Positions 12,998 through 57,517 of a stretch of DNA of 61,892 nucleotides are shown here, one piece after another. The position numbers and the translations under genes were made by a program. Origin of the DNA: a virus (taxonomy: Duplodnaviria; Caudoviricetes); the IMG/VR virus record IMGVR_UViG_3300037461_001800, positions 1 to 61,892 of that record; one strand, 5' to 3'. The notes under the pieces are model-generated. The model was not told the DNA's origin and made no database searches. It saw only the letters and a program-made list of their open reading frames with translations. The first letter of the stretch is position 1; each line of letters begins with the position of its first letter.

Positions 12998-13828
12998 TTA
13001 GCATTTCATATTGCTAACAAGTATTTCCGGAACAGAAGCACGTTTATCTGGTCTACCGATACTCCTAAGTCCAATGACAGTTTCTATACTAAATCCTTCG
13101 AAAAACTTTGCATCACCAGCACTGGATGAATTTGACAACACTTGGAAGACCCCAACTTCGTCCAAACGTTTAAATAAGCGCGCAAGCCTTTCATGATCAA
13201 TTTGTGAAAAACCTCCAACAGTATACTTAGTGAAACTCGAAGTTTTCGATATAGGCAAATATGGTGGGTCGTAGTATATGACGTCCCCAGGCCCTGCATC
13301 TGTACAAATATTTTCAAAATCCGATTCAGAAAGTTCAGCAGACTGGAGTGCATCAGAACATGCACGCAGGTTGTTTTCGTCACAAATGACAGGGTCATTA
13401 TATTTTCCAAATGGTGTATTGAAATGACCTTTATTATTGACCCTATACAGCCCATTGAAAGAAGTCTTGTTTAGATAAATAGTCCTAGCAGCTCGAGTTA
13501 TTGGGTCTAGTTTGTCAGAGTCAGTTCCCCTGATATCAAGAAAGGCCTTGCGGTCATATTTATACTGCGGCTGTTTCAAAACATGAATCAGACTGTCAAC
13601 ATCATCACGAACGACTTGAAATGCATTCATAAGTTCCGGGCATAGATCCCCAAGCACAGCTCTATCGAATCGACCAGATTTTGATAGGGCGAAAAATACC
13701 GCCCCACCTCCCAAGAAAGGCTCATAATAAGTTCCAATCTTCGTTGGGAACTTCGCTATTATGCGATGGGACAGTCTACGCTTTCCGCCAGCCCAACGTA
13801 AAAACGGTGTTACTTTTGATGACAACAT
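12998..13828 (-). CDS. dam: Dam-family (D12 class) DNA adenine methyltransferase
   Basis: PFLRWAGGK, YYEPFLGGGAV, FNGLYRVN, DPPY. Confidence 0.93.
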   Translation of the reverse strand: MLSSKVTPFLRWAGGKRRLSHRIIAKFPTKIGTYYEPFLGGGAVFFALSKSGRFDRAVLGDLCPELMNAFQVVRDDVDSLIHVLKQPQYKYDRKAFLDIRGTDSDKLDPITRAARTIYLNKTSFNGLYRVNNKGHFNTPFGKYNDPVICDENNLRACSDALQSAELSESDFENICTDAGPGDVIYYDPPYLPISKTSSFTKYTVGGFSQIDHERLARLFKRLDEVGVFQVLSNSSSAGDAKFFEGFSIETVIGLRSIGRPDKRASVPEILVSNMKC

Positions 13829-13867
13829 TGTTATATTTTTAAACGGTGTTAAAACGTCTAAGTCGAC

Positions 13868-14356: not shown

Positions 14357-14393
14357 AAATCACCTTTGCCGGTTATTCTCACAACAAAAAGTT

Positions 14394-14951
14394 TCACGAC
14401 GTGAACAACGGAAGTTCAACCCTTTGGCCAGATTCCAGAAACTTTTGAGCCGCATATGCCATATTTGCAGCTACAACGACAATAAACGGGAGGAACTTTC
14501 CATTTTCACACGTCGATGGCTCATCATTTGGCCCATCATCAATAGTAAAATTTTCATCCCATACAACACGACCAAGCTTGCACCCATCTTTCAGGATTCC
14601 ATGTAAACATGGAATCCCCCGACTTCGAGCAAAATTCTGTATAGCACGTCTCGACTCTCTGTTATCAACACAATCGAGGAGTAAATCAGCATTCCCTATG
14701 ATTTCTGACGCATTTGAAGGAATTAACTGGTGTGGAACTGCTCCAAGCTTGGTGTTGAACAATAGCTGCATAAATTTCTGAAGGACCACAACCTTCAATT
14801 TCCCAATATCATCATTGGCGTATACTTGATATAGTACATTTTTACGCAAGACACGCTCAAAATCGACAATTGTGATGTTAGCACAATTTCTGAAAGTCAA
14901 GGTCACATGTGACCCGAGAGCTCCTACTCCGACAAGTACAACTTTTTTCAT
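14394..14951 (-). CDS. ThiF/E1-like adenylyltransferase
   Basis: VGVGALGS, DFERV..KN, GKLKV, DCVDNRESR. Confidence 0.82.
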   Translation of the reverse strand: MKKVVLVGVGALGSHVTLTFRNCANITIVDFERVLRKNVLYQVYANDDIGKLKVVVLQKFMQLLFNTKLGAVPHQLIPSNASEIIGNADLLLDCVDNRESRRAIQNFARSRGIPCLHGILKDGCKLGRVVWDENFTIDDGPNDEPSTCENGKFLPFIVVVAANMAYAAQKFLESGQRVELPLFTS

Positions 14952-14978
14952 GAGGTTATACCTTTCTTAAGAACTCCT

Positions 14979-15440
14979 TCATATTTCCATTACCTGATGG
15001 ATTATTTCCCCAGCAACCTTCTCAAAGTCCACGCTCCGTTCAAGTAGGTTCCACAACGGACCGGCTGCACATTCCATATAAAAACTCTCATACCTCCAAT
15101 CCTGGTTATGGTAATTATAACTGTCAAACTCCGGCTTTGGACATCCATATTCTTCTTTAGATCTAAGTATTCTCACTCTAATCATCAAATGACCCTGGAA
15201 AAGTTCCTCACAGAAGGAACAGTATGCACACGCTATCATGTTGCTATTGTTTCCCGGTGACCCCCAAGGCTCAAACTCCGACATTGAAAAACACACCCTG
15301 AAACCGTCAATCCGTCTTAACGAGTCATAATTCTCTGTGATATGCGTGTATAATGGAAAGTCTTTAATAGAATTCCGACAGTTCCTAATATCGCGGCGCA
15401 TTTGTTCAATCGCCTCGCGAAATACCCGATGCAACATCAT
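14979..15440 (-). CDS. Hypothetical protein with the shared C-terminal tag
   Basis: 153-aa ORF; ends IIHQVMEI. Confidence 0.6.
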   Translation of the reverse strand: MMLHRVFREAIEQMRRDIRNCRNSIKDFPLYTHITENYDSLRRIDGFRVCFSMSEFEPWGSPGNNSNMIACAYCSFCEELFQGHLMIRVRILRSKEEYGCPKPEFDSYNYHNQDWRYESFYMECAAGPLWNLLERSVDFEKVAGEIIHQVMEI

Positions 15441-15687
15441 ACCATATTTTACAGTTACTAGGCACTCTAACTAGATACATTAGACATCTTTTGATTAATA
15501 AGTCGCCGACAGATACAGGACAGACATTAACGTGAATGTTGATTAAACGTTAGGAAGATACTGACGGATTGGTCTAAATATCTTATGGATATCCACAGAT
15601 AAATATGGCTATCATATTATGGCACACCGTGTACACGGTATTTTCGACCTTATATATCTCATCACGAACTACTTGAGCGTCATTTCA

Positions 15688-17490
15688 TTATTCAAATTCG
15701 ATTGTGGCTGGAGGCTTCGCTGTTACATCAAGCGCAACCCCCGAAGTACCCGGGAGCTTCATCAATTGAGATATAATTTCGTATATCATTGATCTAGGTA
15801 AATCTGCTGGCTTAGCTGTCATTGCACGCTCACTGTGCACCGGACGAAGCATGACAAGTTCACTACCTTTCCCATCAATCTTGAGGGGTGCAATGGCTAC
15901 GGGGCACTGCCAAATTTGTTTATATAACCCATAACATTGCAGTGCCTGCGTTACAATATGATCTGCCTCACGTAGCATATCAAGTCGATCTTTAGTTAAG
16001 TCAGCTTTTAAGCCCTTTACTGTTGATATGCCATTCCCTGTTAAGTCTACTAGGCACCTGTTTACACCAGTCACTTCAGCACATAACAAATTTGCTATAC
16101 TTGCTAAATCGTAATGTGAAGCCTGGCCCCAGAGAAATATTGGGGACTCATATGAACGTAAATCAGCCTTGACACCAGTAGTCATTATTGGTAATAACAT
16201 TCCCTTAAGCCCGGTTCCGTCTAAACATCTCATAATGCTCGGGTCAACTCCAGGGAAATGTAACACATCAGTTTCCACTTCAGTGCACAGGCACCGCACA
16301 CTAAGTCCAGGTCCAGGGAACGGATGACGCCATACCATATGACTAGCGATCCCGAGTTTTTCCCCAAGATCACGAACTTCAGTTTTATATAAATCTCGAA
16401 TTGGTTCTACAACACGCCCTTCGTCAGTCATCTTCTTTATGATTGGGACCCTGTTATGATGTGTTTTTATGGTGTCAGATCGCTTTGTCCCTCCGGATTC
16501 AATGGTATCCGGATAAATAGTCCCCTGCCCAAGCATTGCCCCGCCAATTTTTTCAACTTCACGTTCGAATATACGAACAAATGTGTCGCCTATCGCTCGA
16601 CGTTTATACTCAGGGTTAGCAAGACCTGATGCTGCTGTCAAAAATTCTTCAGATGCATCAATAAAGTATAAACTTTCACCGAGACCCATGATTTTTAATT
16701 CTTCAATCACATCTTCGGACTCATATTTCCGCATGAAACCGTTGTTTATATGTAGCAAGCGAAGCTTGCTTGGACCTAATGCCATGCCAAGAAGTTTCGC
16801 ACACACCGTTGAATCCACGCCTCCGGAGACCAGCATTAAAACACTCCGGTCCCCAACTGAAGAACGAATCGATTCAACCTGTTTACTAACAAAGTCTTCC
16901 ATTATCCAAGTTGGCTCACATCCGCAAATGTTGAATACGAAATTCGCTAAAATCTGATCACCAAATTCGGTGTCGTCTACCTCAGGATGAAATTGTAACC
17001 CGTAACGATTCGTTTGTCTACACTCAATTGCAGCATTGTGGTGTATTGCTTTTTTAGCAGTGCTAAAACCGGTTTCTCTAAATCCCAACGGGAGTTTAGT
17101 CACCGTGTCACCATGACTCATCCATACGGTTATTTGATCGGGTATTCCTTCGAAAAGCCTGCTATCCCCAACTGTATGAAACGTAGCAGGACCGTATTCA
17201 CGTGCAATATGCTTAACTTCGCCACCGGCATGTTTAATAATTTCCTGATGTCCAAAACACAGCCCAAGCAACGGAACCGATAGGTTCATTATTTCTTCGC
17301 CAACACCTTCATCACCTCGCGATATTAGTGCAGGACTTCCTGACAAAATAATCCCTTTAAATTTATCGAATTCATTTAACTTGTCTTCTGGTTGGCGAAT
17401 TTCAGCAAACACATGCATGCGCCGGATCTTGTTGGCTATTAAATGAGCATACTGCCCACCAAAATCGACGACTGCAATGTGATTATACAT
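15688..17490 (-). CDS. guaA: GMP synthase (glutamine-hydrolysing), long form
   Basis: DFGGQY, GLCFGHQ, QFHPEV, SGGVDS, IKTHHN, HPFPGPGL, KPPATIEFE. Confidence 0.96.
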   Translation of the reverse strand: MYNHIAVVDFGGQYAHLIANKIRRMHVFAEIRQPEDKLNEFDKFKGIILSGSPALISRGDEGVGEEIMNLSVPLLGLCFGHQEIIKHAGGEVKHIAREYGPATFHTVGDSRLFEGIPDQITVWMSHGDTVTKLPLGFRETGFSTAKKAIHHNAAIECRQTNRYGLQFHPEVDDTEFGDQILANFVFNICGCEPTWIMEDFVSKQVESIRSSVGDRSVLMLVSGGVDSTVCAKLLGMALGPSKLRLLHINNGFMRKYESEDVIEELKIMGLGESLYFIDASEEFLTAASGLANPEYKRRAIGDTFVRIFEREVEKIGGAMLGQGTIYPDTIESGGTKRSDTIKTHHNRVPIIKKMTDEGRVVEPIRDLYKTEVRDLGEKLGIASHMVWRHPFPGPGLSVRCLCTEVETDVLHFPGVDPSIMRCLDGTGLKGMLLPIMTTGVKADLRSYESPIFLWGQASHYDLASIANLLCAEVTGVNRCLVDLTGNGISTVKGLKADLTKDRLDMLREADHIVTQALQCYGLYKQIWQCPVAIAPLKIDGKGSELVMLRPVHSERAMTAKPADLPRSMIYEIISQLMKLPGTSGVALDVTAKPPATIEFE

Positions 17491-24445: not shown

Positions 24446-25510
24446 TCATTTGACTATCACGCCATGAACACCGTTCTCTTGAATTCCTGCTGAGGTAACC
24501 CTAACAAATCTTGCTTTTACTTGAAGTTCTTTGATTGTTTTAGAACCAGTATATCCCATACCAGATTTCAGACCACCAATCAACTGATGTAGAATATCGA
24601 CAACTGGTCCGATATGCGGAACCATTGCTTCAACACCCTCAGGAACAAGTTTATCATTTGTCACATTAGATTGCCCGTAGCGATCTTTAGACCCCCGTTC
24701 CATTGCGCCAACCGACCCCATGCCACGATATTGCTTCCACCGACGGTCAATCAGTTTTCCCGGAGATTCAGTTGCTCCAGCCAACATAGATCCAATCATA
24801 ACAGCATCAGCTCCAGCCCCAATTGCTTTAACAATATCACCGGGGCATTTGATCCCACCGTCAGCCACAATTGGAACTCTATGTTTGTCTGCTTCTTCGG
24901 CACACTCGCACACTGCTGTAAACTGTGGCATTCCACACCCAGATACCATACGTGTAGTACATATACTCCCGGGTCCTTGACCCACTTTAATAATGTCTGC
25001 CCCGGATTCCACTAAAGCTCGTACTCCAGCCAGCGTAGACACATTTCCGGCCATTATCTTCAACTTTGGAAATTTCAACTTGACCCCGGAAACTGCTTTC
25101 AACACATTTATGGAGTGCCCATGAGCCGAATCGACAACAACCAAGTTTAAGAATGCTTCACATTCTGAGATTCTCTGTTCCCAGTCTTTAACCCCTACCG
25201 CTATAGCAATAGTCGGTAAGTTAGCTGAGTCTTTAACCGCGTGACATTTCCTCAGTCTGCGCGCTTTCCCGATCTCTTCTACCTGCTGAACAGCGGTTAA
25301 ATTCTTATGTAAAACCCCACACCCTCCAGCCTCAGCCATTGCTGCCATCATCTTATACTCAGTCACCGTGTCCATTGCAGCACTAAAGATCGGTATCTTT
25401 AATTTTATCCCAGACAGTTCAACACTCGTGTCGACATCTGATGGAACAACTTCACTGTATTGGGGTATGATTAAAACATCGTCAAATGTTAAACATTCCA
25501 CGAGATTCAT
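24446..25510 (-). CDS. guaB: IMP dehydrogenase lacking the CBS (Bateman) domain
   Basis: LTFDDVL, AAMDTVT, DSAHGHS, GPGSICTTR, YRGMGS, DRY flap, VPEGVE; only 354 aa. Confidence 0.93.
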   Translation of the reverse strand: MNLVECLTFDDVLIIPQYSEVVPSDVDTSVELSGIKLKIPIFSAAMDTVTEYKMMAAMAEAGGCGVLHKNLTAVQQVEEIGKARRLRKCHAVKDSANLPTIAIAVGVKDWEQRISECEAFLNLVVVDSAHGHSINVLKAVSGVKLKFPKLKIMAGNVSTLAGVRALVESGADIIKVGQGPGSICTTRMVSGCGMPQFTAVCECAEEADKHRVPIVADGGIKCPGDIVKAIGAGADAVMIGSMLAGATESPGKLIDRRWKQYRGMGSVGAMERGSKDRYGQSNVTNDKLVPEGVEAMVPHIGPVVDILHQLIGGLKSGMGYTGSKTIKELQVKARFVRVTSAGIQENGVHGVIVK

Positions 25511-25525
25511 TCTTCCATAATCCTT

Positions 25526-26815
25526 TCAAGGGTTAACGACAGTTAATGCTCGCGCGCCAATATCTTTCCGATAATGCATGCCTTCAAATCGAATTTGAGA
25601 ACAGGCTAAATAAGCACGATCTCGTGCATTTGTTAATGAGTCTCCCAATCCAACAACCCCGAGTACCCGCCCACCAGATGTAACAAGATCATTTCCAATG
25701 ACTCGCGTGGCTGCATGATATACTATCACGTCTTGCATCCTAACAACTGTATCCAATCCGTCAATACGATCACCGGTCCTCACATGACTTGGATACCCAT
25801 GCGATGCCAATATCACACATAGTGCGTTGCGCTTTTTGACTTGAAGCATCCCTTCTTGTAGGTTACCAAGTGCACATGCATAGCAAGCCTCTGCAAAATC
25901 TCCTTGCAATAATGGTAACACGACTTGTGCCTCTGGATCACCGAAGCGTACATTGAACTCTAGTAAACTCGGGTCACCATCGGGTGAGATCATCAAACCA
26001 GCATATAGTACACCGCGAAATGGATGCCCACGGTCTCGCATACCCATAAGTGTTGGCACCATTATACGCTCACGTATTTTCTTTTCCAGTTGTGGTGTGA
26101 GTATGTGTACTGGTGCATATGCGCCCATACCCCCAGTATTTGGTCCCATATCACCATCGCCAACACGTTTATGATCCTGCGCAGCAGGAAGTAGAATCAT
26201 ATTCTCGCCATCACACACGGCTTGAATACTTAGCTCTGTACCATAAAGTCTATCTTCAATAATTACCGGCGTGCTAGCAGCACCAAACATACGCTGACCT
26301 AACAACATTTCAATCGTTTTCAACGCTTCTGAAACAGACTCAGGAAGAATAACACCCTTACCGGCACACAGACCGTCAGCTTTAATAACTAAAGGTTTGT
26401 CATGCTTCAACACGTAGTCCTGTGCTATAGAGAGTTCGGAAAAAATATAACATGGAGCAGTTGGTATCTTATAATCAGTTGCAAATTTTTTCATGAACGC
26501 CTTTGACCCCTCAAGTCTTGCAGCCAGTCCTGTTGGTCCAAATGCCGGAACACCGTGTTGATATAATTGATCAACAACACCTTCGACCAAGGGTCCTTCT
26601 GGTCCAACAACAACTAGGTCAATCTTGAACCGGTCAACAATCTCTAGTATAGACCCGTTTTTACCCTGATGTGTGGGACAAAACCACTCCTGAGAAATAC
26701 CTGCATTCCCCGGAATTGCAAACACTTTAGATACTGAAGGTGATGCAGACAACGTCGCACAAAGTGCATGTTCGCGACCGCCACCGCCAATCACCAGGAT
26801 GTTTTTTGAAGCCAT
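25526..26815 (-). CDS. purD: Phosphoribosylamine-glycine ligase
   Basis: GGGGREHA, LEGSKAF, KADGLCAGKGV, GPNTGGMG, EFNVRFGDPE. Confidence 0.97.
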   Translation of the reverse strand: MASKNILVIGGGGREHALCATLSASPSVSKVFAIPGNAGISQEWFCPTHQGKNGSILEIVDRFKIDLVVVGPEGPLVEGVVDQLYQHGVPAFGPTGLAARLEGSKAFMKKFATDYKIPTAPCYIFSELSIAQDYVLKHDKPLVIKADGLCAGKGVILPESVSEALKTIEMLLGQRMFGAASTPVIIEDRLYGTELSIQAVCDGENMILLPAAQDHKRVGDGDMGPNTGGMGAYAPVHILTPQLEKKIRERIMVPTLMGMRDRGHPFRGVLYAGLMISPDGDPSLLEFNVRFGDPEAQVVLPLLQGDFAEACYACALGNLQEGMLQVKKRNALCVILASHGYPSHVRTGDRIDGLDTVVRMQDVIVYHAATRVIGNDLVTSGGRVLGVVGLGDSLTNARDRAYLACSQIRFEGMHYRKDIGARALTVVNP

Positions 26816-26960
26816 AATAGTTATCCACAACTGTCAACACAGAACTTAACACCGGTACAACTATAGGTTTTGTGATCTAATTATCTACATGCGGTTAGAT
26901 TACATGATATTCCGGATGTCTCCTTCTTACCAAATTCATTATGGACACCCATACGCAGCC

Positions 26961-41920: not shown

Positions 41921-43222
41921 TTATATACCTAGCGCTCTATTGATTAGAGTATCGGTATGTCTCAGGGCATGTTCAAGGTCAAAACATTTTTTCAAACCAT
42001 AAAATCCAAGAGTAGCTATAACGTCTGAATCGAACCCAATAGTATCTTCAAAAGGAATGGTGCTATGATACATAGCATTACGCTGAACTATTTCATATGC
42101 TCGTTTCTTTTCCATTCCAGACTTAACTAAAGCTAACATCACTGATTCACTAAAAATTAGCCCCCCAGTAAGAAGTAAGTTTTCTTTCATACGTTCTACA
42201 TTAATTTCAAGGTTTTTGATTAGATCTGTAGCTTTATCTATCATATGAGCTAAAGTCGCTGTTACATCTGGGGCGATATATCTCTCAACAGAAGAATGAG
42301 AAATGTCACGTTCATTCCATAACGCCACGTTCCTAATTGCGGGGTCTATAGCCCCACATACAATCCTGGCTAGTCCACACAAATTCTCACTGAGTATTGG
42401 GTTTCGTTTGTGTGGCATTGCGGAGGAGCCCGTTTGGCCCTCCCTGAAACCTTCTCGCACTTCCCCGACCTCGGTTCGCTGCAAATGCCTGACTGTGACA
42501 GCGAGCCTTTCGAGGGCTGCGGCGGTCAAACCGAAAGCACAAAACAAATTCGCATGTCTGTCCCTAGACACCACTTGTGTTGGGATAACTTCGGCTTTTA
42601 ACCCTAAACTAGATAAAATCTTATCTTCTAGTTCTGGACTCAGATGGGCATATGTCCCCACGGCTCCAGAGATTGTTCCAACAATATCTTCACAAGCCAG
42701 TAGAACACGCTTTTTTGCCCTATGAACTTCTTGATAATGTCCAGCTAATACTAGTCCAAAAGTTGTTGGTTCGGCATGTTGTCCATGGGTCCTACCAACC
42801 ATAGGGGTGTGTGCATGTTCGATGATACGTGCTTTAAGCGTGGATATAAGATTTTCCATACGTGTATCAATCAAACTACACGCTTCCAATAGTGTCATGG
42901 CAAAAGCTGTATCTACAACATCACTCGACGTAAGCCCGAAATGTAGCCACCTTGCTGGCGTGCCAATTCCTTCTTCTAAATGTCTAAGAAAAGCAACAAC
43001 ATCATGACGGGTCACTTGTTCAATATTAGATATTCTATACGGGTCTATTTCAAAATTTCTATCGGAAACCGCGGTGTTAATAGCTTCCAAAGTCCCAGAC
43101 GGGACTAGACCAGCATGTTGCATAACACAACATGCTGTGGTCTCAATTTTAAACCATAAATTGAATTTATGTTTATCTGACCATAACTCAACAAATTCTT
43201 GTGGGGAATACCTAGGAATCAA
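41921..43222 (-). CDS. purB: Adenylosuccinate lyase
   Basis: IPRYS, RHDV, HFGLTSSD, GRTHGQHAEPTTFG, GSSAMPHKRNP; TTG start. Confidence 0.97.
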   Translation of the reverse strand: MIPRYSPQEFVELWSDKHKFNLWFKIETTACCVMQHAGLVPSGTLEAINTAVSDRNFEIDPYRISNIEQVTRHDVVAFLRHLEEGIGTPARWLHFGLTSSDVVDTAFAMTLLEACSLIDTRMENLISTLKARIIEHAHTPMVGRTHGQHAEPTTFGLVLAGHYQEVHRAKKRVLLACEDIVGTISGAVGTYAHLSPELEDKILSSLGLKAEVIPTQVVSRDRHANLFCAFGLTAAALERLAVTVRHLQRTEVGEVREGFREGQTGSSAMPHKRNPILSENLCGLARIVCGAIDPAIRNVALWNERDISHSSVERYIAPDVTATLAHMIDKATDLIKNLEINVERMKENLLLTGGLIFSESVMLALVKSGMEKKRAYEIVQRNAMYHSTIPFEDTIGFDSDVIATLGFYGLKKCFDLEHALRHTDTLINRALGI

Positions 43223-45852: not shown

Positions 45853-46608
45853 ATGTCAGAACAGAAGAAAACAAGAGGTGGCAGAGTTAAGATAGACATG
45901 CAGAAAGTCGAACAAGCTGTCCATAAATGCATAAAAAGATTCAGAGGAGCGAACGAAAAACGTTATATGGCAGCACTTCTATACGCCATGCTCACAAATA
46001 ATACGATCCCTATTGATCTACTAGATACGATCCCTACCTCTTCAGATGAAGTTGGAAAAACTAGGTTTGATCAATTATATGATGCTGCAATGAGTATTGC
46101 GTTTCCTAGTTATAGACTGGAAACTCTAGAAAGACTTTTAGGACCTGATGCAGAAATTTCAGAAAATACGAAAATCTGGAGGGTAATCCTACCTCAGAAA
46201 TTCAAGTTGGCCCATGTGCTTATAAGAGCAGACTCTTATCAAGAAGCCTTTGCCCTCGCATGTGACTATGCATGCCGTGCATCATTGCGCGTTTATGGAA
46301 AGATTCCACACGATTTGACTGTAAGAGTAATGTTCATGACAGAAAAAGCAATTCGAAGGAAGCTTGATCTACGATGGGCAAACCGAGTAAATAAGAGAAG
46401 ACAACTACAATTGATTGGACGTGTATATTCTCCTAAAGAGATAGGAGGAGCCAGAGTAGCGGCTATTGGTCCGCCAAGCAGTCCAGCATTCCAGCTTGCA
46501 AGGTACATAGAAGCTAAGGATTTAGGAAAAATTTTAAGGTCAAAAAACTTGGTTCGAGTATCTTCTGTTGAATCTGAAGTATTTATTGAAGAAAATTTAG
46601 CTATTTAA
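45853..46608 (+). CDS. Basic hypothetical protein directly upstream of the purZ-like gene
   Basis: 251-aa ORF on the same strand, 17 nt before 46626. Confidence 0.7.
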   Translation: MSEQKKTRGGRVKIDMQKVEQAVHKCIKRFRGANEKRYMAALLYAMLTNNTIPIDLLDTIPTSSDEVGKTRFDQLYDAAMSIAFPSYRLETLERLLGPDAEISENTKIWRVILPQKFKLAHVLIRADSYQEAFALACDYACRASLRVYGKIPHDLTVRVMFMTEKAIRRKLDLRWANRVNKRRQLQLIGRVYSPKEIGGARVAAIGPPSSPAFQLARYIEAKDLGKILRSKNLVRVSSVESEVFIEENLAI

Positions 46609-46625: not shown

Positions 46626-47843
46626 ATGAAACAAGGGAAATTCAACGTTATTATAGACGCATTTTGGGGAAGCTCTGGAAAAGGGAAAGTGTCGGCGTGG
46701 CTTGTTGATTACTTCGGAGTAAAAAATATATCTTCGTCGAACTTCCCTAATGCTGGGCACACTTTCCAATTTGGCGAGTATAAGTTTGTCGCCAAAGCTA
46801 TCCCAACAGCACTTGCACTGAAACATGCAAAAGGGATGGGAGTTAAGGGGTGGCTTTCTCCTGCTTCTGGACTAAGTGTGTCGGATCAAATGAAATGGGA
46901 TAGGCTCATTGTTGAATGGGCTCAATCAGGAAAACCTGATCTGATCATTCACAACAGGGCGTCAATCGTAACACCCGAACACGCTCAGGCCGAAAGAGAT
47001 GGAACGGGGTCTACAAAACATATTGCATCAACAATGCAGGGATGCTCCGCAGCTATGATTGATAAGATTCTGAGAAAAAACGAATGTTTGTTGGCAGGAT
47101 CCAAATCGGTTGGGGAATGGACTCCAAATTCCGTCATACTTCCTAACGGGTTATCTTTATCAGAGTCTGATATCGAAGAGTTTGTAACACGAACTATGAT
47201 GTTGGACAGTATGCATTTCAGGATTAGCGTCCAAAGCCTGATTAAGGGTGGCAACATGTGGCTTCATGAAGGGAGCCAAGGTTATGCTTTATCAATTGAT
47301 CACGGATCAAGTTATCCACACTGCACAAGCCGAAATTGCACTTTGCAAAAAGCAATGGACGACATGGCCGTTCCCCCAGACATGGTAGGGGACGTTTATC
47401 TTAATTTAAGAACACATCCGATTCGTGTTGGAAACGTTATAGAAGACGGTGTCCAACATGGATATTCTGGAGATTTTTATCCAGACTGCAAAGAACTTAC
47501 ATGGGAACAAATAGCTGAAGAATCTGGAATGCCTGACGATGAAGCTAAAGCACTAACTGAACGCGAGCGTACCACAGTCACAAAACGTGTACGACGAGTC
47601 TGTTCATTTTCGTTTGTGGGGCTTGAAGATGCGGTAGTAACAAATGGAGCCACAAAGTTGATACTGAATTTTGTTCAGTATCTAGACTGGAATGATTATG
47701 GGCTTCGTGGTGATAAGAAGGCCTTCAACAAATTATCAAAAAAGACTCGGTCCATGATCGATAAAATCGAACAAGTGGCAAATGTTCCGGTAGTTTTGAT
47801 AGGAACTGGCGCCGATCATGAAGATATGATAACACTTATGTAA
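46626..47843 (+). CDS. purZ: PurZ-type adenylosuccinate synthetase homologue (putative N6-succino-2-amino-dAMP synthase)
   Basis: PurA fold (NAGHT, EGSQG..L.IDHG..YP.CTSR, PIRVG, TTVTKRVRR) with GSSGKGK for GDEGKGK and NFVQ for TKLD. Confidence 0.72.
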   Translation: MKQGKFNVIIDAFWGSSGKGKVSAWLVDYFGVKNISSSNFPNAGHTFQFGEYKFVAKAIPTALALKHAKGMGVKGWLSPASGLSVSDQMKWDRLIVEWAQSGKPDLIIHNRASIVTPEHAQAERDGTGSTKHIASTMQGCSAAMIDKILRKNECLLAGSKSVGEWTPNSVILPNGLSLSESDIEEFVTRTMMLDSMHFRISVQSLIKGGNMWLHEGSQGYALSIDHGSSYPHCTSRNCTLQKAMDDMAVPPDMVGDVYLNLRTHPIRVGNVIEDGVQHGYSGDFYPDCKELTWEQIAEESGMPDDEAKALTERERTTVTKRVRRVCSFSFVGLEDAVVTNGATKLILNFVQYLDWNDYGLRGDKKAFNKLSKKTRSMIDKIEQVANVPVVLIGTGADHEDMITLM

Positions 47844-47844
47844 T

Positions 47845-49365
47845 TCACCTAGTTAGTACAAACTTGATTTTTTCTTTCCCGAAGACTTTCTTCCATCCGT
47901 GTTTACTGGCGTAAACAGTTTCCAGCATATGCACTGATCTTGCTTGATTATATAAAGTTTTCTTGTGCATAACCCACCCATCTTTTCTCACATATACGTA
48001 ATCCGGTTTAACCCGGCTAACTTCTTTCCAATTTGAAGCTTTATATATCGTCCCATCATGCCCAAATGTTGTATCTGAAAATGCCACTAGGCTACGGCAC
48101 TGTGGGTATCGATTAAAGAACATGTTGGAAGCGCGACTCAAAAAATATGAGCAAAAATTCTTCTTCTGACGCATCGGATGTATACAAAAACGATCTAACT
48201 CGAATGTTTCTTTGGGCGTTGATCCGATACTAGTGGCGACTTCCTTCCGGGAAACAGGGCTAAATTTCGCCAAAGCTATTATCTGGTCGTTCAACATTGC
48301 TGCAATAGTCATTTTTCCTTGTTTACCGAATTGAGCATAATGCCATGATGACAAGAATTTTTTCGCTTCATTCCATGAAGGTTCAGATATGGACAAATCA
48401 GACCAGGCAAAATCAAGTGTTGGTAGACTTGCTAGTCCGATTGCCTGCTTCAATTTATTCGTATACTCTCCGTTAACAATGTCAAAGTCCCATATATACA
48501 CAATCTTCGAATCTGGCACTGATGAACGCAAATACGAGTATTTGGACCTATCTCTTCTTTCATTATTGGGCAGAGTGTGCCAATATTCTCCTTGGACTTC
48601 AATGAATAAATTCAGCGATGGTATATAAAAATCGAAATTGTACGGCCCGATTGATTTATTGTATATGAAGTCAACCCCAAGATCGGATAATAGGTTTTGA
48701 ACTGAAGTTTCTCCGCTGGACATTTTTCCACCACGTGGAAACCCCTCCAAACCGTTGGCAATTTTTTCTTTATATTCAGGGTTTTTAAAGCGTTCTAAAG
48801 CCAGTTGTCTATGCAACTCCCGATATTCAGTATTGGATAGGGCGGTTTTATGAGCGGCTCTTGCCTCGGGGGTCCATAAAGCTGAAGTTTTTTCTGCGAT
48901 ATATTTGTCTGGGTCGCTGACATACTGTGAACGGTTTCTTTCAGAAACCAGGTTTCTATGTTCCTCGGATTTAAATTTTTCAGAAATTCGTTGCCTTTGT
49001 TTACTGGCATATTCAACATTTTCCCATGCAGCTTTGGACTGGGAAGACCTCTGACTACGACCAGCAGCTGATCTAGCTGCAGCAGAACTGTTTTCAATGA
49101 TCTTTGTGGCAATTTCGGGGTTAGACCATGATTTCTTGGACTGAGAAGAACGGGCAGCTCTCCCCTCTGGGGACCTTGCAATACAAAGCCCGCACCTATA
49201 CACGCCACGCTTTCTCAACGTTCTACAGATCGCCAAGCGTGTTGTTTGTATTGCCGTCCCACAAAGGCTGCATCGAGCAAAACATTTACTGTTGAAACGT
49301 GGCGGTAGGGTATACCCAAATTGTATTGAAGTTTCTTTTTGATCCACGTAATAAGTATAATCCAT
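47845..49365 (-). CDS. Zn-ribbon + DUF559/Vsr-like endonuclease + Mom/Hef-like GNAT domain protein
   Basis: CSLCG/CGLC; DFYIP..IEVQGEYWH; ELDRFC...AFSDxxxGHxGTIYKASNW. Confidence 0.75.
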   Translation of the reverse strand: MDYTYYVDQKETSIQFGYTLPPRFNSKCFARCSLCGTAIQTTRLAICRTLRKRGVYRCGLCIARSPEGRAARSSQSKKSWSNPEIATKIIENSSAAARSAAGRSQRSSQSKAAWENVEYASKQRQRISEKFKSEEHRNLVSERNRSQYVSDPDKYIAEKTSALWTPEARAAHKTALSNTEYRELHRQLALERFKNPEYKEKIANGLEGFPRGGKMSSGETSVQNLLSDLGVDFIYNKSIGPYNFDFYIPSLNLFIEVQGEYWHTLPNNERRDRSKYSYLRSSVPDSKIVYIWDFDIVNGEYTNKLKQAIGLASLPTLDFAWSDLSISEPSWNEAKKFLSSWHYAQFGKQGKMTIAAMLNDQIIALAKFSPVSRKEVATSIGSTPKETFELDRFCIHPMRQKKNFCSYFLSRASNMFFNRYPQCRSLVAFSDTTFGHDGTIYKASNWKEVSRVKPDYVYVRKDGWVMHKKTLYNQARSVHMLETVYASKHGWKKVFGKEKIKFVLTR

Positions 49366-49797: not shown

Positions 49798-50341
49798 TTT
49801 CTCTTCGTCGTCTCTTCATATGAATCCACAATTGATCTCGATTATTTTGCATATATTCAAAACATGTTTTGAAATACCCGACAACCGGGTAGGCTGCATC
49901 TTTCCTCATTAAAAGTTCCAGAATCGTTTTTCCTCCACTTTCAGAAAAGAGCCATTCCTCATCAATGGGTATATCCGGTTCTTTCTGACTCCAAACGTTT
50001 CCATATGGAAACAACATTAGGACGAATTCCTTCTTTTCAAAATGTGGCTTTGGAAGAGCGATAAACTTCTCCTTGCGCTTAATTGCAAAATACACACCAG
50101 GAGGCAAGTTAACACCTACTGGTGTGGTAGTTACCCATCTCTTTATGCTCATCCATTTAACTTCGGAAGCCTTGTTCCCCATCTGCTTACGACATTGTAA
50201 AGAACAGTTGTAAAGAGCTGAAGGGGATAAGCCACATTCCCACGGTTTGAAGTCGGATGGAACATTTGGGAAAGTGTGCAACGCCTTTAAATGAAAAACT
50301 CCCAAAGCAGAAATTTTTCGTTGTATGTTTGGGTCTACCAT
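49769..50341 (-). CDS. Hypothetical protein
   Basis: 190-aa ORF divergent from thyX. Confidence 0.6.
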   Translation of the reverse strand: MVDPNIQRKISALGVFHLKALHTFPNVPSDFKPWECGLSPSALYNCSLQCRKQMGNKASEVKWMSIKRWVTTTPVGVNLPPGVYFAIKRKEKFIALPKPHFEKKEFVLMLFPYGNVWSQKEPDIPIDEEWLFSESGGKTILELLMRKDAAYPVVGYFKTCFEYMQNNRDQLWIHMKRRRREINDAESQAI

Positions 50342-50352
50342 GGAGAATCACC

Positions 50353-51687
50353 GTGTCAAATGTGTTTTGTTTAACTGGACCTGATGGAAGGCTTTTAGAC
50401 CCATCCTTACAAGCAACCATACTTGCTAAGTATTCACGGTCACCAGATTCTGCAAGAGAAATCCTAGCCAGAATTACGTCGGAGGAGTCTGATAAATTTC
50501 ACGATAAGTGGGTGGTGAAATTTGGACATAGTTCGGTTGCAGAACTAGCTACCATACCGATATGCATGGAAGGTATATCGATTGTTGCATCAAAAGTTGT
50601 TGAGTCAATGCAACGGGGTGCTTTCTCAGAAAAAAGTACCCGATATCAGCGTTTTTCTAGTGAAAGCTTTATCACCCCACCTGGGGGCCCAGATACAATG
50701 AAAGCATTCGCTAGCCGAATGTATGCAGCATATGACAAGCTATACGAACCGATGATGACACGGTGTGCCGTGCTTATGGGTCGAGATCCGAATGATCGTA
50801 AGTCTTTCGATAGGGTCCTGAAAGCCAGGGCTTTTGATAGTCTCAGGTATTTGCTCCCGGCGGGAACTGGAACGAATGTGGCTTGCGTGTTGAATTTCAG
50901 AGATACACGAGACTTGATTTCAACAATGCTGGGACATTCTAACCCTGAAATCCAGAAAATTGGGGAAGATGTGCTTGCCGCAGCAAGTGGAATTAGCCCT
51001 GTGCTTATGCGTCATGCAGTACCAAACGTTTTTGAACCAAAAATTATGTCTTTAGGGGCGTTAAATTCACAATTTATCCCTGAGAGACCCAATTGGTATG
51101 TATCACTTGATAACACAAGTGTATCACAATCAGATGCTAAACAATTTCTCTCGAAACTTATTGAATCTAGGTACAATATGGACTGGGAAACCTTCTCAAG
51201 ACATATGACAGCCAGGCCTGAGCACTTACAAGTCCCAAAAATTTTTGATACAATTACCTTAACATTTGACATCCTGATGGATTATGGGGCTTTCCGCGAT
51301 CTACAGAGACATCGAAAATGTGAACAGTTTGTTGAGCCACTTACGACCCAGTATGGGTTCATGATTCCTGATGACATAGCTGGATCAGATCTCGAATCCG
51401 ATTATGTGTCGGCTATGGAATCGGTAGCATTATATGATGATGACAGGGTCATTTATGACACTGATTTATTCCAATATATGATCCCGATGGGTTATCTACA
51501 TAGGTCATCGTTTCAAATGACCATGAGGGAACTCTATTATATAGTAGAGCTACGAACTCGTCCACACGGCCATATTTCATATAGACGAATAGCCTATAAA
51601 ATGTATGAGCTAGCTAGGAGAAACTTCCCAGACCTTATGGAATGGTGTAGAGCGGTGGAGCCTACATCGATCGGTGATCATGGGTAA
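50353..51687 (+). CDS. thyX: Flavin-dependent thymidylate synthase, long two-domain form
   Basis: AKYSRS, FGHSSVAE, SEKSTRY, FRDLQRHR, ELRT..GHxSYR; probable GTG start after GGAGA. Confidence 0.85.
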   Translation: MSNVFCLTGPDGRLLDPSLQATILAKYSRSPDSAREILARITSEESDKFHDKWVVKFGHSSVAELATIPICMEGISIVASKVVESMQRGAFSEKSTRYQRFSSESFITPPGGPDTMKAFASRMYAAYDKLYEPMMTRCAVLMGRDPNDRKSFDRVLKARAFDSLRYLLPAGTGTNVACVLNFRDTRDLISTMLGHSNPEIQKIGEDVLAAASGISPVLMRHAVPNVFEPKIMSLGALNSQFIPERPNWYVSLDNTSVSQSDAKQFLSKLIESRYNMDWETFSRHMTARPEHLQVPKIFDTITLTFDILMDYGAFRDLQRHRKCEQFVEPLTTQYGFMIPDDIAGSDLESDYVSAMESVALYDDDRVIYDTDLFQYMIPMGYLHRSSFQMTMRELYYIVELRTRPHGHISYRRIAYKMYELARRNFPDLMEWCRAVEPTSIGDHG

Positions 51688-53776: not shown

Positions 53777-54733
53777 TTATGCTGAATTCAGTTCAATGAT
53801 TCTTTTCATTGTGGTCATCATGACGGTGTTTGGAGACAAGTCCCCTAGAAGTCTAAACCCGGCTGCTTTTCCGTGTCCACCTCCTCCAAAAGATTTGGCA
53901 AGATCAGAAGCTGAAAAACACCCATTCGTCCTAACAGAAACAATTGTACGCATGTCTTCGTCTTCATGAAGATAGAAATATCCAACTACAGCATCATACA
54001 ACATATCATTCATGATACAATGAGCAATATCGCTCATTGAACCTCTCTCTGAGAGGTTGAAGAAAGCTATACGAGTAGTTTTGTCCCCAATAATTATGTC
54101 ATATTTAACAGATGATCGAGTGAAACTCTTTGATGCTCGAAGAACTTTATCATAGAGTTTTTCTCCAATAAATAAAAGCTCCTTCATCGGGGGAACTTTC
54201 CCAGTGTTGGCCATATTCAGTGCCCATTTTTGGCCGTATAGGAGGAGAGCATGGGAGAGTGCACACGCTTCATACCAGTCTGGAGATGTGTCTTTCCATG
54301 TGTCTCTAACCATGCAGAGATGTGTAAATCTCTCCCAGGTTTTTAGATCTTCAGGAGATATCTTATCACCAACTAGCGGAAGCATAATATTTGAATAGAC
54401 CAGCATTGTTCCGGATTCATCTGGTCCCCCATATATACCATTAAGACCATCTATGATATGAGACACTGTTTCATGATGATCAAGGACGATCGGGGACGAC
54501 CCCTTCCATTCTTCCCATCTGTCTTTTGGGGGAGTGATATCAATAAATAGCTGTCTAGGTCTCACCGTTAGGTCTGTATGAGACTTTGTACTATACAGTA
54601 TGAAATTTGTTGGAGGGGGTTGAACTCCCATGGCAACATAGGCTGCTGTGCAAACCATGGCAGCCCCAATTCCATCCGGGCATCCAGAATGGGATACTAT
54701 TTCGGACACTTGAAGAAGGGCATCTCTATTCAT
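53777..54733 (-). CDS. DHH/DHHA1 phosphoesterase
   Basis: HxxCPDG, FIDI, LDHH, SVR, FGGGGHxxAAGF. Confidence 0.88.
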   Translation of the reverse strand: MNRDALLQVSEIVSHSGCPDGIGAAMVCTAAYVAMGVQPPPTNFILYSTKSHTDLTVRPRQLFIDITPPKDRWEEWKGSSPIVLDHHETVSHIIDGLNGIYGGPDESGTMLVYSNIMLPLVGDKISPEDLKTWERFTHLCMVRDTWKDTSPDWYEACALSHALLLYGQKWALNMANTGKVPPMKELLFIGEKLYDKVLRASKSFTRSSVKYDIIIGDKTTRIAFFNLSERGSMSDIAHCIMNDMLYDAVVGYFYLHEDEDMRTIVSVRTNGCFSASDLAKSFGGGGHGKAAGFRLLGDLSPNTVMMTTMKRIIELNSA

Positions 54734-55673
54734 TATTTCTATCCTTCACCTGACTGACGATTGTGTCGACGGTTAGGCTCAACTGCTCAATTGAGCCGTT
54801 ATTCATAACTACATAGTCAAATTCCGAATCTGGGATGGTTTCCTGTTCAGTTTCAGATCTGTGGTTATATGGGGCCTTTTCGATCCCAGGTCGCTTCACT
54901 CTAATTAAGATTGGCCTGAATTCATTTGACTCTTTGGCGGCTTGTCTAGTATATAAAATTTCATGCCAATGACGGAAATCAGAGAAGCATGTGATGACGT
55001 CCCCAGTTACCTCCCGACGAGTCTCGACATTATCAATCACACACTCATTATCTATGAGCCCAAGCATGCGGTCATAACAATATACCGGATGCCTTGTCTG
55101 ATTAAGTCCATCTGTCTTAAAACAGGCTAACTTCCTATGAACTTCTATACCATGCCTTACCCAAGTAAATAAATACATTTTGTTCATCAGGTTACAATAT
55201 TTCTGCAGAGCTTCACGCGGTGATAAGAAAAACCTAGGATCGGTTTCTTCGAAGAATAGACGTATATACCCTTCTTGTTGTGAATGCCGGAAATGATCAA
55301 GAGTTTCCATACCAAGATCATTGAGAAACTGCACCTCATCTCCTTTAGAGAGATCTAAGTCTATACACCACCAGTGTTTGGACGGATCAGTGTAACTGTC
55401 TTGACTGGTGTCAAGTGTTAGTTCACTTTGGCTTGTTCGACGTCCTTTATATGCTGTAACTATTGTTTTGGGATATCGGCAGTCCCCGGCATTTCTCATA
55501 TAGCTAGGTCCAAAGAGTTGGTCCCTAGTAAAACCATATACCTCTGCCATATGGCGCTTTGCTGGGTCTGTTAAACCGGTATGGACCGCTCCATGTTTAT
55601 TCACAAGCCTATAACAAAATTCATCTTTTCCAACTCCGGAAAACCCAGACACACAAAACATTAAATGAGTCAT
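54726..55673 (-). CDS. Deoxynucleoside monophosphate kinase (phage dNMP kinase type, with insertions)
   Basis: P-loop SGFSGVGKD, DPAK..F..DQLFGPS, SPREALQ, SDFRHxHE, HRSE, NNGSIEQL. Confidence 0.8.
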   Translation of the reverse strand: MTHLMFCVSGFSGVGKDEFCYRLVNKHGAVHTGLTDPAKRHMAEVYGFTRDQLFGPSYMRNAGDCRYPKTIVTAYKGRRTSQSELTLDTSQDSYTDPSKHWWCIDLDLSKGDEVQFLNDLGMETLDHFRHSQQEGYIRLFFEETDPRFFLSPREALQKYCNLMNKMYLFTWVRHGIEVHRKLACFKTDGLNQTRHPVYCYDRMLGLIDNECVIDNVETRREVTGDVITCFSDFRHWHEILYTRQAAKESNEFRPILIRVKRPGIEKAPYNHRSETEQETIPDSEFDYVVMNNGSIEQLSLTVDTIVSQVKDRNNE

Positions 55674-55709
55674 GAAATGTTATTACATTCAATATGAGTT
55701 AGAAAGGTG

Positions 55710-56417
55710 TCATCTGCCTTTACCTCGAATAGACAGGGTCCCAAAAACACTAGCGCTATACCAAAGAACGAGATCTATAATTCCAAGCGGCAGTCTTTTA
55801 CCACTGTTGCTCTCGTGTTCTTTCTGAAGTGTCTCACACATGGTTACGCAATCTTTGAACCCCCAATGTTTAGCCATTCGTACAAGATGAAGGTCTGGTT
55901 TGATAAACTCGAGAAGTCCGATATTGCGCGCTAGATGGAAACAAGTGACCTTTCCAATATATGGAAGCTTTGAAAGGAGCTCTGGAGAATTAAGATTCGC
56001 TTTTTTCCAAGCGTCCCACCCAATACCATTCGGTCCGTCAATACCTTTCTGCATTAGTTTTGCTGTTGCATGGACAGCCTTTGCCTTCTGTGAGTTGTTG
56101 CATACGGGTGCAACATATCTCATAACCTCAGAGAATTCCACGCTGGCTAGAGACTGCCATTGCCCATAGGCGCTCAAAAGTCTCGGTATGAATTTCCCAA
56201 CGGCTTTAGCAGAAAAACCCGTTGCATGAACGACCCATACGTACTCTTGGAAAAAGAAATTATCGTCTACATCTTCAAATTTGGTGGATGAGAGTGTCTC
56301 TAACTGCTCTGGATAGTGTTGTTCAACAAATTTTAGAGCAGCTTCGAAATACTCAGGGGGTCCCGCTGACAAATCTGGCGGGTTATTAATTCCAGATAGC
56401 GTCTTGTGTGGTTCCAT
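55710..56417 (-). CDS. Helix-hairpin-helix DNA glycosylase-like protein
   Basis: LSKLPYIGKVT..HLARNIG...KPDLHL. Confidence 0.7.
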   Translation of the reverse strand: MEPHKTLSGINNPPDLSAGPPEYFEAALKFVEQHYPEQLETLSSTKFEDVDDNFFFQEYVWVVHATGFSAKAVGKFIPRLLSAYGQWQSLASVEFSEVMRYVAPVCNNSQKAKAVHATAKLMQKGIDGPNGIGWDAWKKANLNSPELLSKLPYIGKVTCFHLARNIGLLEFIKPDLHLVRMAKHWGFKDCVTMCETLQKEHESNSGKRLPLGIIDLVLWYSASVFGTLSIRGKGR

Positions 56418-56661
56418 AACTTTCGATCTCACAATCGAAAGTTATGGCAATGTCGTCCCTCCATTCCCTGTTATCCATGACGTGTTCTCTCCTTTCCTGT
56501 TGAGCTTTTTTCCAACAAGAATGACAGAAAATGGAATGGTGATCGTCTGAAGTGAAACGTCGAACAGACTTAAACCCATTCCCACAATGAGAACACGTTC
56601 CCGATTCTGGATTCCATAATATGTGCATCTTCCTACGTTTCCGTGATGATAGAAACGTCAT
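56386..56661 (-). CDS. Small zinc-finger protein
   Basis: CSHCG...CHSC. Confidence 0.55.
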   Translation of the reverse strand: MTFLSSRKRRKMHILWNPESGTCSHCGNGFKSVRRFTSDDHHSIFCHSCWKKAQQERREHVMDNREWRDDIAITFDCEIESYGTTQDAIWN

Positions 56662-56953: not shown

Positions 56954-57517
56954 TTAGTCAGGTATGAAGTCTTTGCGTGTGGTGAGCGCGACATACGGCA
57001 AACCTGCTTCGCACAGCGCCTGGCCCCCGCCTTCTAGGCGGTCGACGATGACCACGACGCCCACCGGGTTGAGGCCTGCCTGGCGAAGAGTGTCAGCCGC
57101 ACGTAGGGTGGAGCCACCCGTCGTGATGACATCTTCGAGCAGCACGACGGGCATACCGGGACGCATTGCTTGGTCACCCTCAATGAGCTTCTTCATTCCG
57201 TGATCCTTCTGCGTCTTGCGAACATAGAAGGCAGGCATGGGGCGGTTGCGGAGATAGCTGGTAAGCGAGACGGCGGAGGCCAGAGGACAGCCGCCAAGCT
57301 CAACTCCGGCGACGGCTTCGGCGGGCTCGGGCAATTCATCGAGGGCATCGAACATGAGCTTGCCGAGCAGCGCGTGGCCCTCGGCGGTTAGAGCAACCTG
57401 CTTGCAGTCAATAAAAAAGTCGCTCTCGCGGCCGGATGCGAGAATAACGCGCTTGCGCTGGAAGGAACGTTCGGTGAGAAGTGCAATGAGTCTATCTCGT
57501 TGGGCAATGTTGATCAT
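56954..57517 (-). CDS. pyrE: Orotate phosphoribosyltransferase (GC-rich gene)
   Basis: LASGRES..FIDC, VRK..KDHG, LEDVITTGGS, VDRLEGG. Confidence 0.96.
   Translation of the reverse strand: MINIAQRDRLIALLTERSFQRKRVILASGRESDFFIDCKQVALTAEGHALLGKLMFDALDELPEPAEAVAGVELGGCPLASAVSLTSYLRNRPMPAFYVRKTQKDHGMKKLIEGDQAMRPGMPVVLLEDVITTGGSTLRAADTLRQAGLNPVGVVVIVDRLEGGGQALCEAGLPYVALTTRKDFIPD

Follow-up and report, generated by a model that had tools for sequence, protein, structure and literature searches.

A conserved PurZ-family gene, probably encoding an N6-succino-2-amino-(deoxy)adenylate synthase, in an uncharacterised clade of ~360–440 kb phages

We analysed IMG/VR virus record IMGVR_UViG_3300037461_001800 (Duplodnaviria; Caudoviricetes) over its full length of 61,892 bases (hereafter the window; the record is labelled 'provirus' and has a CheckV completeness of 14%), focusing on the gene at 46626..47843 (+). 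This open reading frame (ORF) starts with ATG and encodes a protein of 405 a.a. that is a Ser-type, ATP-type homologue of adenylosuccinate synthetase, i.e. a member of the PurZ family. It is preceded by an AAGGA Shine–Dalgarno-like box ~8 nt 5' of the ATG, and a gap of 17 nt separates it from the stop codon of the upstream ORF. An earlier note on this DNA had read the gene as a 'purA' carrying PurZ signature substitutions, and the phage as a jumbo-type phage with a candidate 2-aminoadenine (Z) genome. The six motifs that it quoted are all present in the translation: FWGSSGKGK (residues 13–21), PNAGHT (41–46), RTHPIRVGN (262–270), SGDFYPDCKELTWE (281–294), TTVTKRVRR (316–324) and LNFVQY (347–352).

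The protein matches the Pfam family PF00709 (E 4.9e-28, 98.5 bits) and the PHROG family phrog_1211 ('2-aminooxy adenylosuccinate synthetase', E 1.8e-49), so that its similarity to these families is far beyond chance. When PDB sequences are ranked by similarity to it, the top two are the PurZ proteins of phages phiVC8 (124.5 bits, E ~5e-35) and S-2L (97 bits, E 1e-26), followed by the PurA of Pyrococcus horikoshii (83 bits, E 1.6e-22); the PurZ0 of Gordonia phage Archimedes (7VF6; 49 bits, E 4e-12) and E. coli PurA (1ADE; 40 bits, E 2e-9) rank below these. Among the NCBIfam models NF038379 (PurZ) scores best, and the purA model TIGR00184 gives 118.6 bits against a cut-off of 395.55, i.e. it does not call the protein a PurA. 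An AlphaFold2 model of the protein has a predicted local distance difference test score (pLDDT) of 92.6, and the top Foldseek match of this model is again phiVC8 PurZ (E 3e-28, TMt 0.85; S-2L PurZ also has a TMt of 0.85).

Homologues are numerous: 2957 were found at E<=1e-5, and the 120 of these that are listed are 57–100% identical to the 405-a.a. protein and lie on contigs of up to 445 kb (one of them, P0001, is identical and is encoded on a contig of 109,643 bases). An exhaustive search of representatives gave 2050 clusters at E<=0.001, 186 of them at E<=1e-30. The homologues carry source labels such as 'adenylosuccinate synthase' or 'synthetase', as the earlier note had expected of automatic naming. 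By tblastn, 69 out of 50,697 phage records were matched, all at <60% identity; the 40 matches listed have 28–33% identity and include the Z-phages S-2L and phiVC8 and Vibrio relatives of phiVC8, as well as other records annotated as adenylosuccinate or 2-aminooxy adenylosuccinate synthetase. Among public sequencing runs, the sequence was found only in Logan assembled contigs of 2020 wetland metagenomes. Judged by these comparisons, 46626..47843 is a real, conserved gene of the PurZ family.

To map diagnostic residues, the protein was aligned with the annotated records of phiVC8 PurZ, S-2L PurZ, Arthrobacter phage Wayne PurZ0 and E. coli PurA. S16 aligns with S14 of phiVC8, S23 of S-2L and the catalytic Asp13 of E. 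coli PurA, and T316 is at the position of phiVC8 T262, where E. coli has a Gly (position 298). The stretch N348 F349 V350 Q351 Y352 corresponds to N305 F306 A307 Q308 Y309 in S-2L and to N F C N Y in phiVC8, in place of T K L D V in E. coli (the GTP motif T-K-x-D); Wayne PurZ0 has T-M-L-D at the site of N-F-V-Q. W293, Y285, S327, P265 and C233 are identical to the corresponding phiVC8 residues, W14 is at the position of phiVC8 F12 (E. coli has Trp there as well), and R321 is at the position of phiVC8 K267, S-2L L278 and E. coli Arg303. According to the available part of Yang et al. (bioRxiv 10.1101/2025.10.22.683976), ten residues separate PurZ from PurA. Our protein is exact at seven of them (phiVC8 S14, T262, F295, Y298, W252, Y244 and S273, here S16, T316, F349, Y352, W293, Y285 and S327, respectively); of the remaining three, F12 is conservatively replaced by W14, and P144 and I34 differ (N152 and S36). 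The two signatures pointed out in the earlier note, Ser for the catalytic Asp13 and N-F-x-Q-Y for the T-K-x-D motif, are thus seen both in this residue map and in the joint alignment of the family. As far as the alignments can tell, S16, T316, W293, Y285 and N348-F349-x-Q351-Y352 are of the PurZ/ATP type and not of the PurA/GTP type.

These residues are strongly conserved. In PurA, Asp13 is an essential residue with 99% conservation, and all (100%) of 147 phage sequences of the PurZ group were reported to have Ser (PMC12884076, in the portion of its text that was available). A recognisable P-loop is present in 256 out of 269 homologues and representatives, and 255 of these have G-S while none has G-D: there are 161 GSS, 51 GST, 23 GSC, 18 GSE and 2 GSG, and a lone GFS, which is probably a mis-match. 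In the joint alignment none of 120 close homologues deviates at S16, S17, T316, R321, W293, N348, F349, Q351 or Y352, and Ser at the S16 site is also found in 116 out of 116 family representatives. At the sites of S16, T316, W293, N348, F349, Q351 and Y352, by comparison, four bacterial PurA proteins have D, G, G/A, T, K, D and V, respectively.

Three features had been taken in the earlier note as departures from typical PurZ (GSS rather than GST, NFxQ rather than NFxN, and the Arg after TTVTK), and none of them is atypical in the larger sample. Of the 116 representatives, 47 have T directly after the Ser and 31 have S, while C and E are found there in 18 each; the residue at the Q351 site is N in 58, Q in 26, D in 21 and E in 9, and Q is also what the characterised S-2L PurZ has (N305 F306 A307 Q308; accessible text of PMC8342488); and the residue at the R321 site is R in 83, K in 28 and L in 5, so that phiVC8 (K) and S-2L (L) are in the minority. 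Since all three are common in the family, they provide no sequence argument for an altered specificity. The other half of that proposal, a clade distinct from the characterised PurZ proteins, is borne out by the trees below.

Some homologues are interrupted. All six long homologues that we checked (P0121, P0122, P0123, P0128, P0133 and P0142; 747–1197 a.a.) contain inteins: LAGLIDADG homing-endonuclease domains are inserted in each of them (P0123 has two LAGLIDADG-type inserts), a Hint intein-splicing domain was also matched in four out of six, and the PurZ match is interrupted at conserved motifs. The inteins, together with the strong conservation, suggest that the PurZ-like gene is working and important. 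It is probably essential to the phage.

We built three trees: a FastTree of 141 rows, a quick IQ-TREE of 57 rows and a careful IQ-TREE of 47 rows (LG+C20+F+G4), the 57- and 47-row sets being hand-picked from the 141 rows to span every major branch. All were rooted on four bacterial PurA proteins only, so they speak to the position relative to bacterial PurA, that relative to archaeal PurA being outside their scope. A scan of genome contigs gave 28 loci, all bacterial or from metagenome-assembled genomes and none from an archaeon. A partial ORF (L043) and representatives outside 330–460 a.a. or lacking the P-loop motif were left out; a misextracted ORF (L060) forms a 6.4-long branch in the 141-row tree and was excluded from the later ones. 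The three topologies agree. In the careful tree PurA is split at 100/100 from the Ser group, in which the query falls, and Wayne PurZ0 is basal, outside a 41-row core (99/97) that contains the query. Within this core a 33-row group (96/90) joins the query lineage and the S-2L/phiVC8/BCSR129 clade (100/97). The query lineage (20 rows at 96/77, with an inner group of 16 rows at 94/97) falls outside the latter clade; it also holds Flavobacterium phage MaF61 and a copy from Chondromyces apiculatus. Wayne, MaF61 and S-2L have long branches. The position in the trees indicates a protein of the PurZ type rather than PurZ0 or PurA; by the same trees, it is in a large separate clade in which we found no characterised enzyme, carried by 360–440 kb phages. 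Our literature search on jumbo and huge phages gave nothing relevant on PurZ or diaminopurine (members of the clade may be present in the supplementary sequence sets of Poubanne et al. and Yang et al.), and the available part of the MaF61 paper is silent on the DNA of this phage and on its PurZ-like gene.

The Chondromyces copy (42% identical), from a cultured myxobacterium, is found in a prophage-like island on contig18 of C. apiculatus DSM 436 (L024:2387-9774), with the gene order phage integrase, PurZ-like, dUTPase-family gene, AAA_25 protein. The start of the dUTPase-family gene overlaps the stop of the PurZ-like gene, and its product has an N-terminal extension of ~110 a.a. This genome also encodes a canonical PurA. 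By analogy, the PurZ-like/Dut-like pair recalls the DutZ partners of PurZ0.

How the protein compares with the known enzymes can be stated in more structural terms. It shares with phiVC8 and S-2L PurZ the C-T-S-R motif, H-P-I-R-V-G with a loop inserted after it, and the adenine pocket N-F-x-(N/Q)-Y, in addition to the Ser at the Asp13 site, the Thr at phiVC8 T262, the counterparts of W252, Y244 and S273 and the common tree group. It differs from them in having an identity of only 28–33%, ~45–60 more residues, an insert at ~155–205, a longer loop after R-V-G, Trp in place of Phe/Tyr before G-S, and Arg in place of Lys/Leu after TTVTK. With PurZ0 (Archimedes and Wayne), a GTP-dependent early form, it has the Ser and the Ser tree group in common, but Wayne keeps the GTP-type T-M-L-D and is basal. 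The short archaeal-type PurA (P. horikoshii 5K7X/2D7U; NF003295) is of a similar size class and has a similar fold, but by family definition has Asp13 and uses GTP and IMP (inosine monophosphate), whereas our protein combines Ser with a motif of the ATP type. E. coli PurA shares the superfamily and fold, G-K-G of the P-loop, N-A-G-H-T, which contains the catalytic His, and R-V-G; at Asp13 it has D where our protein has S, at 298 it has G in place of T, and it has T-K-L-D in place of N-F-V-Q.

Seven related IMG/VR loci have PurZ-like copies that are 41–73% identical to the one in the window. Four of the seven, with 59–73% identical copies, are on records of 362–427 kb that have direct terminal repeats and are 100% complete, which agrees with the earlier description of a jumbo-type phage; a fifth complete relative (436 kb) was found through its PolA. 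The phage of the window is therefore roughly 400 kb. In all five complete relatives the PurZ-like gene is the sole PF00709 gene, and there is no canonical PurA.

Several genes of purine metabolism are encoded in the window. A PurB adenylosuccinate lyase is at 41921..43222 (-) (TIGR00928, 418.8 bits; cut-off 326.2), and its family (PF00206) is also found in two out of four complete relatives. PurB is the enzyme that follows the PurZ or PurA step, and it also serves de novo purine synthesis. GuaA, the glutamine-hydrolysing synthase that converts xanthosine monophosphate (XMP) to guanosine monophosphate (GMP), is at 15688..17490 (-) (NF000848, 496.3 bits; cut-off 400). A protein similar to IMP dehydrogenase (GuaB-like, without the CBS insert) is at 24446..25510 (-) (PF00478, 428.8 bits); it scores 388 bits with the IMP dehydrogenase model TIGR01302 (cut-off 481.5) versus 225 and 209 bits with the best GMP reductase models, so these model scores favour a GuaB-like assignment, with GMP reductase as the weaker alternative. 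PurD (phosphoribosylamine–glycine ligase), a de novo purine gene, is next to it at 25526..26830 (-) (TIGR00877, 500.5 bits; cut-off 288). GuaB-like, GuaA and PurB in the absence of a canonical PurA fit a phage that makes both of its DNA purines from guanylate.

We favour, with moderate confidence, the reading that the ORF encodes a PurZ-family N6-succino-2-amino-(deoxy)adenylate synthase, with Z possibly partial, in an uncharacterised clade of ~360–440 kb phages. Its parts differ in strength: PurZ-type chemistry, with a guanine nucleotide, aspartate and ATP, is quite likely, while for Z in the virion DNA the chances are about even at best. In the favoured reading, ATP (or dATP) would phosphorylate O6 of deoxyguanosine monophosphate (dGMP) and aspartate would then displace the phosphate, as in the PurZ proteins of phiVC8 and S-2L. 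Going by the roles of PurZ pocket residues described in the available parts of PMC8342488 and bioRxiv 10.1101/2025.10.22.683976, S16 (Asp13 in PurA) and T316 would make room for guanine's 2-amino group, and N348, F349, Q351 and Y352 would bind adenine instead of guanine. The phage PurB would take off fumarate to give the monophosphate dZMP, kinases would convert it to dZTP, and the phage PolA would put dZTP opposite T. The GuaB-like protein and GuaA would drive IMP towards GMP, from which G and Z both derive. Family membership, residues, tree placement and the identification of PurB and GuaA are established by the comparisons; we infer in this scheme the substrate (dGMP, not GMP or IMP), the phosphate donor and, most of all, the full or partial presence of Z in virion DNA.

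More tentatively, and on somewhat less than even chances, the whole clade of 360–440 kb phages, from wetlands and other environments, may have ZTGC or mixed A/Z genomes made by a largely self-encoded route: IMP to XMP (GuaB-like), to GMP (GuaA), to (d)GMP, to a succinyl intermediate (PurZ-like) and to the Z nucleotide (PurB). This route would do without MazZ, DUF550 or DpoZ and would use a variant HD hydrolase, and Dam would either act on Z at N6 or mark a mixed A/Z genome.

The accessory genes are of mixed value here. A YfbR/DatZ-family HD protein is found in all five complete relatives, ~10 kb from PolA, although not within the 62 kb window. It has the motif R-Y-S-S/T, as compared with R-W-G-I in S-2L DatZ and R-W-P-L in E. 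coli YfbR; a Y20-S/T22 variant of YfbR is prevalent in dZ-enriched contigs according to the available part of Yang et al. (bioRxiv 10.1101/2025.10.22.683976). PolA was found in four out of four complete relatives, and no family B polymerase was found. Two further approaches gave little. Restriction-site avoidance was considered as a sign of modified DNA, and proved uninformative: the observed/expected (O/E) ratio is 0.99 for GATC and 0.86–1.14 for sixteen 4-mer palindromes, and the median for 6-mer palindromes with A/T (1.01, n=56) versus that for GC-only ones (0.79, n=8) is based on 3–7 counts per word, too few to mean anything. A co-occurrence contrast through PolA relatives turned up no complete relative that lacks the PurZ-like gene; among nine fragments of PolA relatives PF00709 is in two and the HD protein in eight, a split to be expected from the distance between these genes. 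The clade PolA proteins are 942–994 a.a. long (L049–L052), and their nearest phage record is the uncultured 485 kb phage LR745208.1 (36% identity), which is not among the 40 listed out of 69 tblastn matches of the PurZ-like protein.

A number of observations weigh against the favoured reading and against a Z genome. The score with NF038379 (175.3 bits) misses the curated cut-off of 300, and that with the archaeal-type PurA model NF003295 (162.9 bits; cut-off 368) is little lower. The fold was dropped as an arbiter of function, as Foldseek fails to separate PurZ from P. horikoshii PurA (TMt 0.88–0.89 for the latter; 0.80 for PurZ0 and 0.65–0.71 for bacterial PurA structures). The literature searched has no assayed enzyme within the clade. 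The HD protein has Ser/Thr at the site of DatZ Ile22, a residue that sterically excludes 2-amino purines in S-2L DatZ (PMC8065100, accessible portion); having no bulky specificity residue there, it need not spare dZTP. No known enzyme for converting dGTP to dGMP was found in the complete relatives: MazG (PF03819) in none of four, DUF550 (PF04447) in none of four (a search whose control was also silent), and DUF5664 (PF18909) in none of five (the positive control in phage Wayne worked), while dUTPase (PF00692) was found in one out of five; DUF5664 and dUTPase are the partners of PurZ0. PolA is no DpoZ, scoring 71 bits with DpoZ_1 (cut-off 500) and 24 with DpoZ_2 (cut-off 350). A Dam-family N6-adenine DNA methyltransferase is encoded at 12998..13828 (-) (TIGR00571, 238.1 bits; cut-off 114.85), and its family PF02086 was found in the window and in four out of four complete relatives searched but in none of five PurZ/PurZ0-phage records (phiVC8, S-2L, Wayne, BCSR129 and MaF61). 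Together with the Mom-like domain adjoining the PurZ-like gene, Dam suggests that adenine is present, or that host DNA or Z is the substrate of both enzymes; it bears against a fully A-free genome. Finally, surroundings with CarAB, PyrE, PurD, PurB and GuaA fit a plain role in the AMP branch as well.

The enzyme could instead have PurZ-type chemistry but another role or substrate, an explanation that we consider unlikely, though the strongest of the rivals. It could use the ribonucleotide GMP from the phage GuaA, the product being reduced later, or Z could be partial or transient (e.g. depleting dATP/ATP or modifying part of the DNA), and the genome would keep adenine, with Dam (and, where present, the Mom-like protein) modifying it. 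The lack of a detected dGTP-to-dGMP enzyme beside an encoded GuaA and GuaB-like protein, the retention of Dam, the HD protein without a bulky residue at position 22 and a PolA that is not DpoZ all agree with it. So does Arg321, since E. coli Arg303 at this site contacts the ribose 2'-OH (available text of PMC8342488); but Arg is the majority state of the family, even within the clade of characterised PurZ (BCSR129, P0266), and is therefore no marker of a ribo-specific form. The explanation is also opposed by Val268 and the loop insertion after R-V-G, longer than the S-2L loop that is said to exclude the 2'-OH (same text), and by S-2L itself, which has no DpoZ and yet has a fully Z genome (accessible portion of PMC8065100), and no earlier example of a ribo route came up in the literature consulted.

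We regard it as improbable that the protein is a plain adenylosuccinate synthetase (IMP plus aspartate) which provides the AMP branch beside PurD, PurB, GuaB-like and GuaA, and whose Ser is just an unusual replacement in a viral PurA that has diverged. In favour of this, the gene is surrounded by standard nucleotide-biosynthesis genes, as the sole PF00709 gene of each complete relative it would fill an otherwise empty branch, Dam implies adenine in the DNA, the score with the archaeal-type model is almost that with the PurZ model, and the fold of P. horikoshii PurA is equally close. This reading would have to account, however, for Ser in 255 of the 256 relatives with a recognisable P-loop where PurA needs Asp13, for N-F-x-Q-Y in place of T-K-x-D, for a Thr at the E. 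coli Gly298 site as in PurZ, for the 100/100 split from PurA in the trees and for the low TIGR00184 score. That the gene is a decaying or non-functional relic of purA or purZ is very hard to believe: the ORF is intact over its whole length and is preceded by a ribosome-binding site, homologues number in the thousands, the catalytic and ligand residues are invariant in the close ones, the structural model is confident, synteny is kept across the related loci, and inteins occupy conserved sites in relatives.

The favoured reading, a PurZ-type synthase in large phages, would matter for what is known of Z-genomes. The Z-phages described in the literature consulted are small siphoviruses and podoviruses (records of ~38–66 kb) with a compact datZ–mazZ–purZ cluster, and they need the PurB of the host. 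The phages of the query clade are ~10 times larger, have their own PurB, GuaA and GuaB-like protein, have no datZ/mazZ 'Z-cluster' adjacent to the gene and are without the usual accessory enzymes as far as found; if they do make Z-DNA, no known Z-genome would come close to theirs in size. Z-genomes would then span a wider range of sizes and ecologies, it would become apparent which accessory genes are dispensable, the question would arise of how Dam and Mom-type N6 enzymes handle Z, and many 'adenylosuccinate synthase' entries in databases would be mis-annotated. If Z-DNA is not made, the Ser/ATP signature alone would be no predictor of a Z genome, which matters for every sequence-based survey of Z-phages.

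The gene immediately 5' of the PurZ-like gene, at 45853..46608 (+), encodes a protein of 251 a.a. that has no family match, and it holds this position in six out of seven related loci. It is probably co-transcribed with the PurZ-like gene, and its product may be a pathway partner. Its 155 homologues are all unnamed or 'hypothetical' and are restricted to similar contigs (up to 428 kb). We did not retain it as the missing accessory enzyme: there is no Pfam, PHROG or NCBIfam match, and its AlphaFold2 model (pLDDT 69.5) has no Foldseek match in the PDB at E<=0.001.

On the other side, tail to tail with the PurZ-like gene, is an ORF at 47845..49365 (-) that encodes a protein of 506 a.a. with a Mom-like domain at residues 325–484 (PF25680, 67.2 bits; phrog_1384, Mom-like). 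Its N-terminal part is repeat-rich and endonuclease-like, and the protein as a whole matches phrog_559 and phrog_3339 (HNH/homing endonuclease); the gene looks like a mobile endonuclease–Mom fusion. In a comparison of the seven related loci it adjoins purZ in the window and in L003 alone, and L008 has a copy at a distance. We rejected it as a pathway partner because of this sporadic occurrence (two out of seven related loci plus one distant copy). Another endonuclease gene, of the GIY-YIG type, adjoins the Dam gene at 12084–12929 (-).

The genes conserved 3' of the PurZ-like gene encode a ThyX, a DHH/DHHA1 protein, a weakly matching DNMK-like protein and an HhH-GPD protein. The ThyX-type thymidylate synthase at 50257..51687 (+) (476 a.a.; PF02511, 113.5 bits) is part of this conserved block in six out of seven related loci (441–467 a.a. 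in relatives). It has two Thy1 stretches and is about twice as long as the 191-position Pfam Thy1 model; it may be tandem-duplicated. The other three are in the block 53777–56432 (-): a DHH/DHHA1 phosphoesterase, which could be a source of deoxynucleoside monophosphates, a DNMK-like protein (19.7 bits, below the cut-off) and an HhH-GPD glycosylase-like protein.

The window also encodes CarB, CarA, PyrE and a dCMP deaminase among tail-fibre and other virion genes. The genes for nucleotide synthesis are scattered (689–4992, 12998–17490, 24446–26830, 41921–43222 and 56954–57517); the set, an unusually rich one, consists of CarB, CarA, Dam, dCMP deaminase, a ThiF-like protein, GuaA, the IMP dehydrogenase-like protein, PurD, PurB and PyrE. 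Such host-like nucleotide genes may be the reason why the record was cut and labelled as a provirus.

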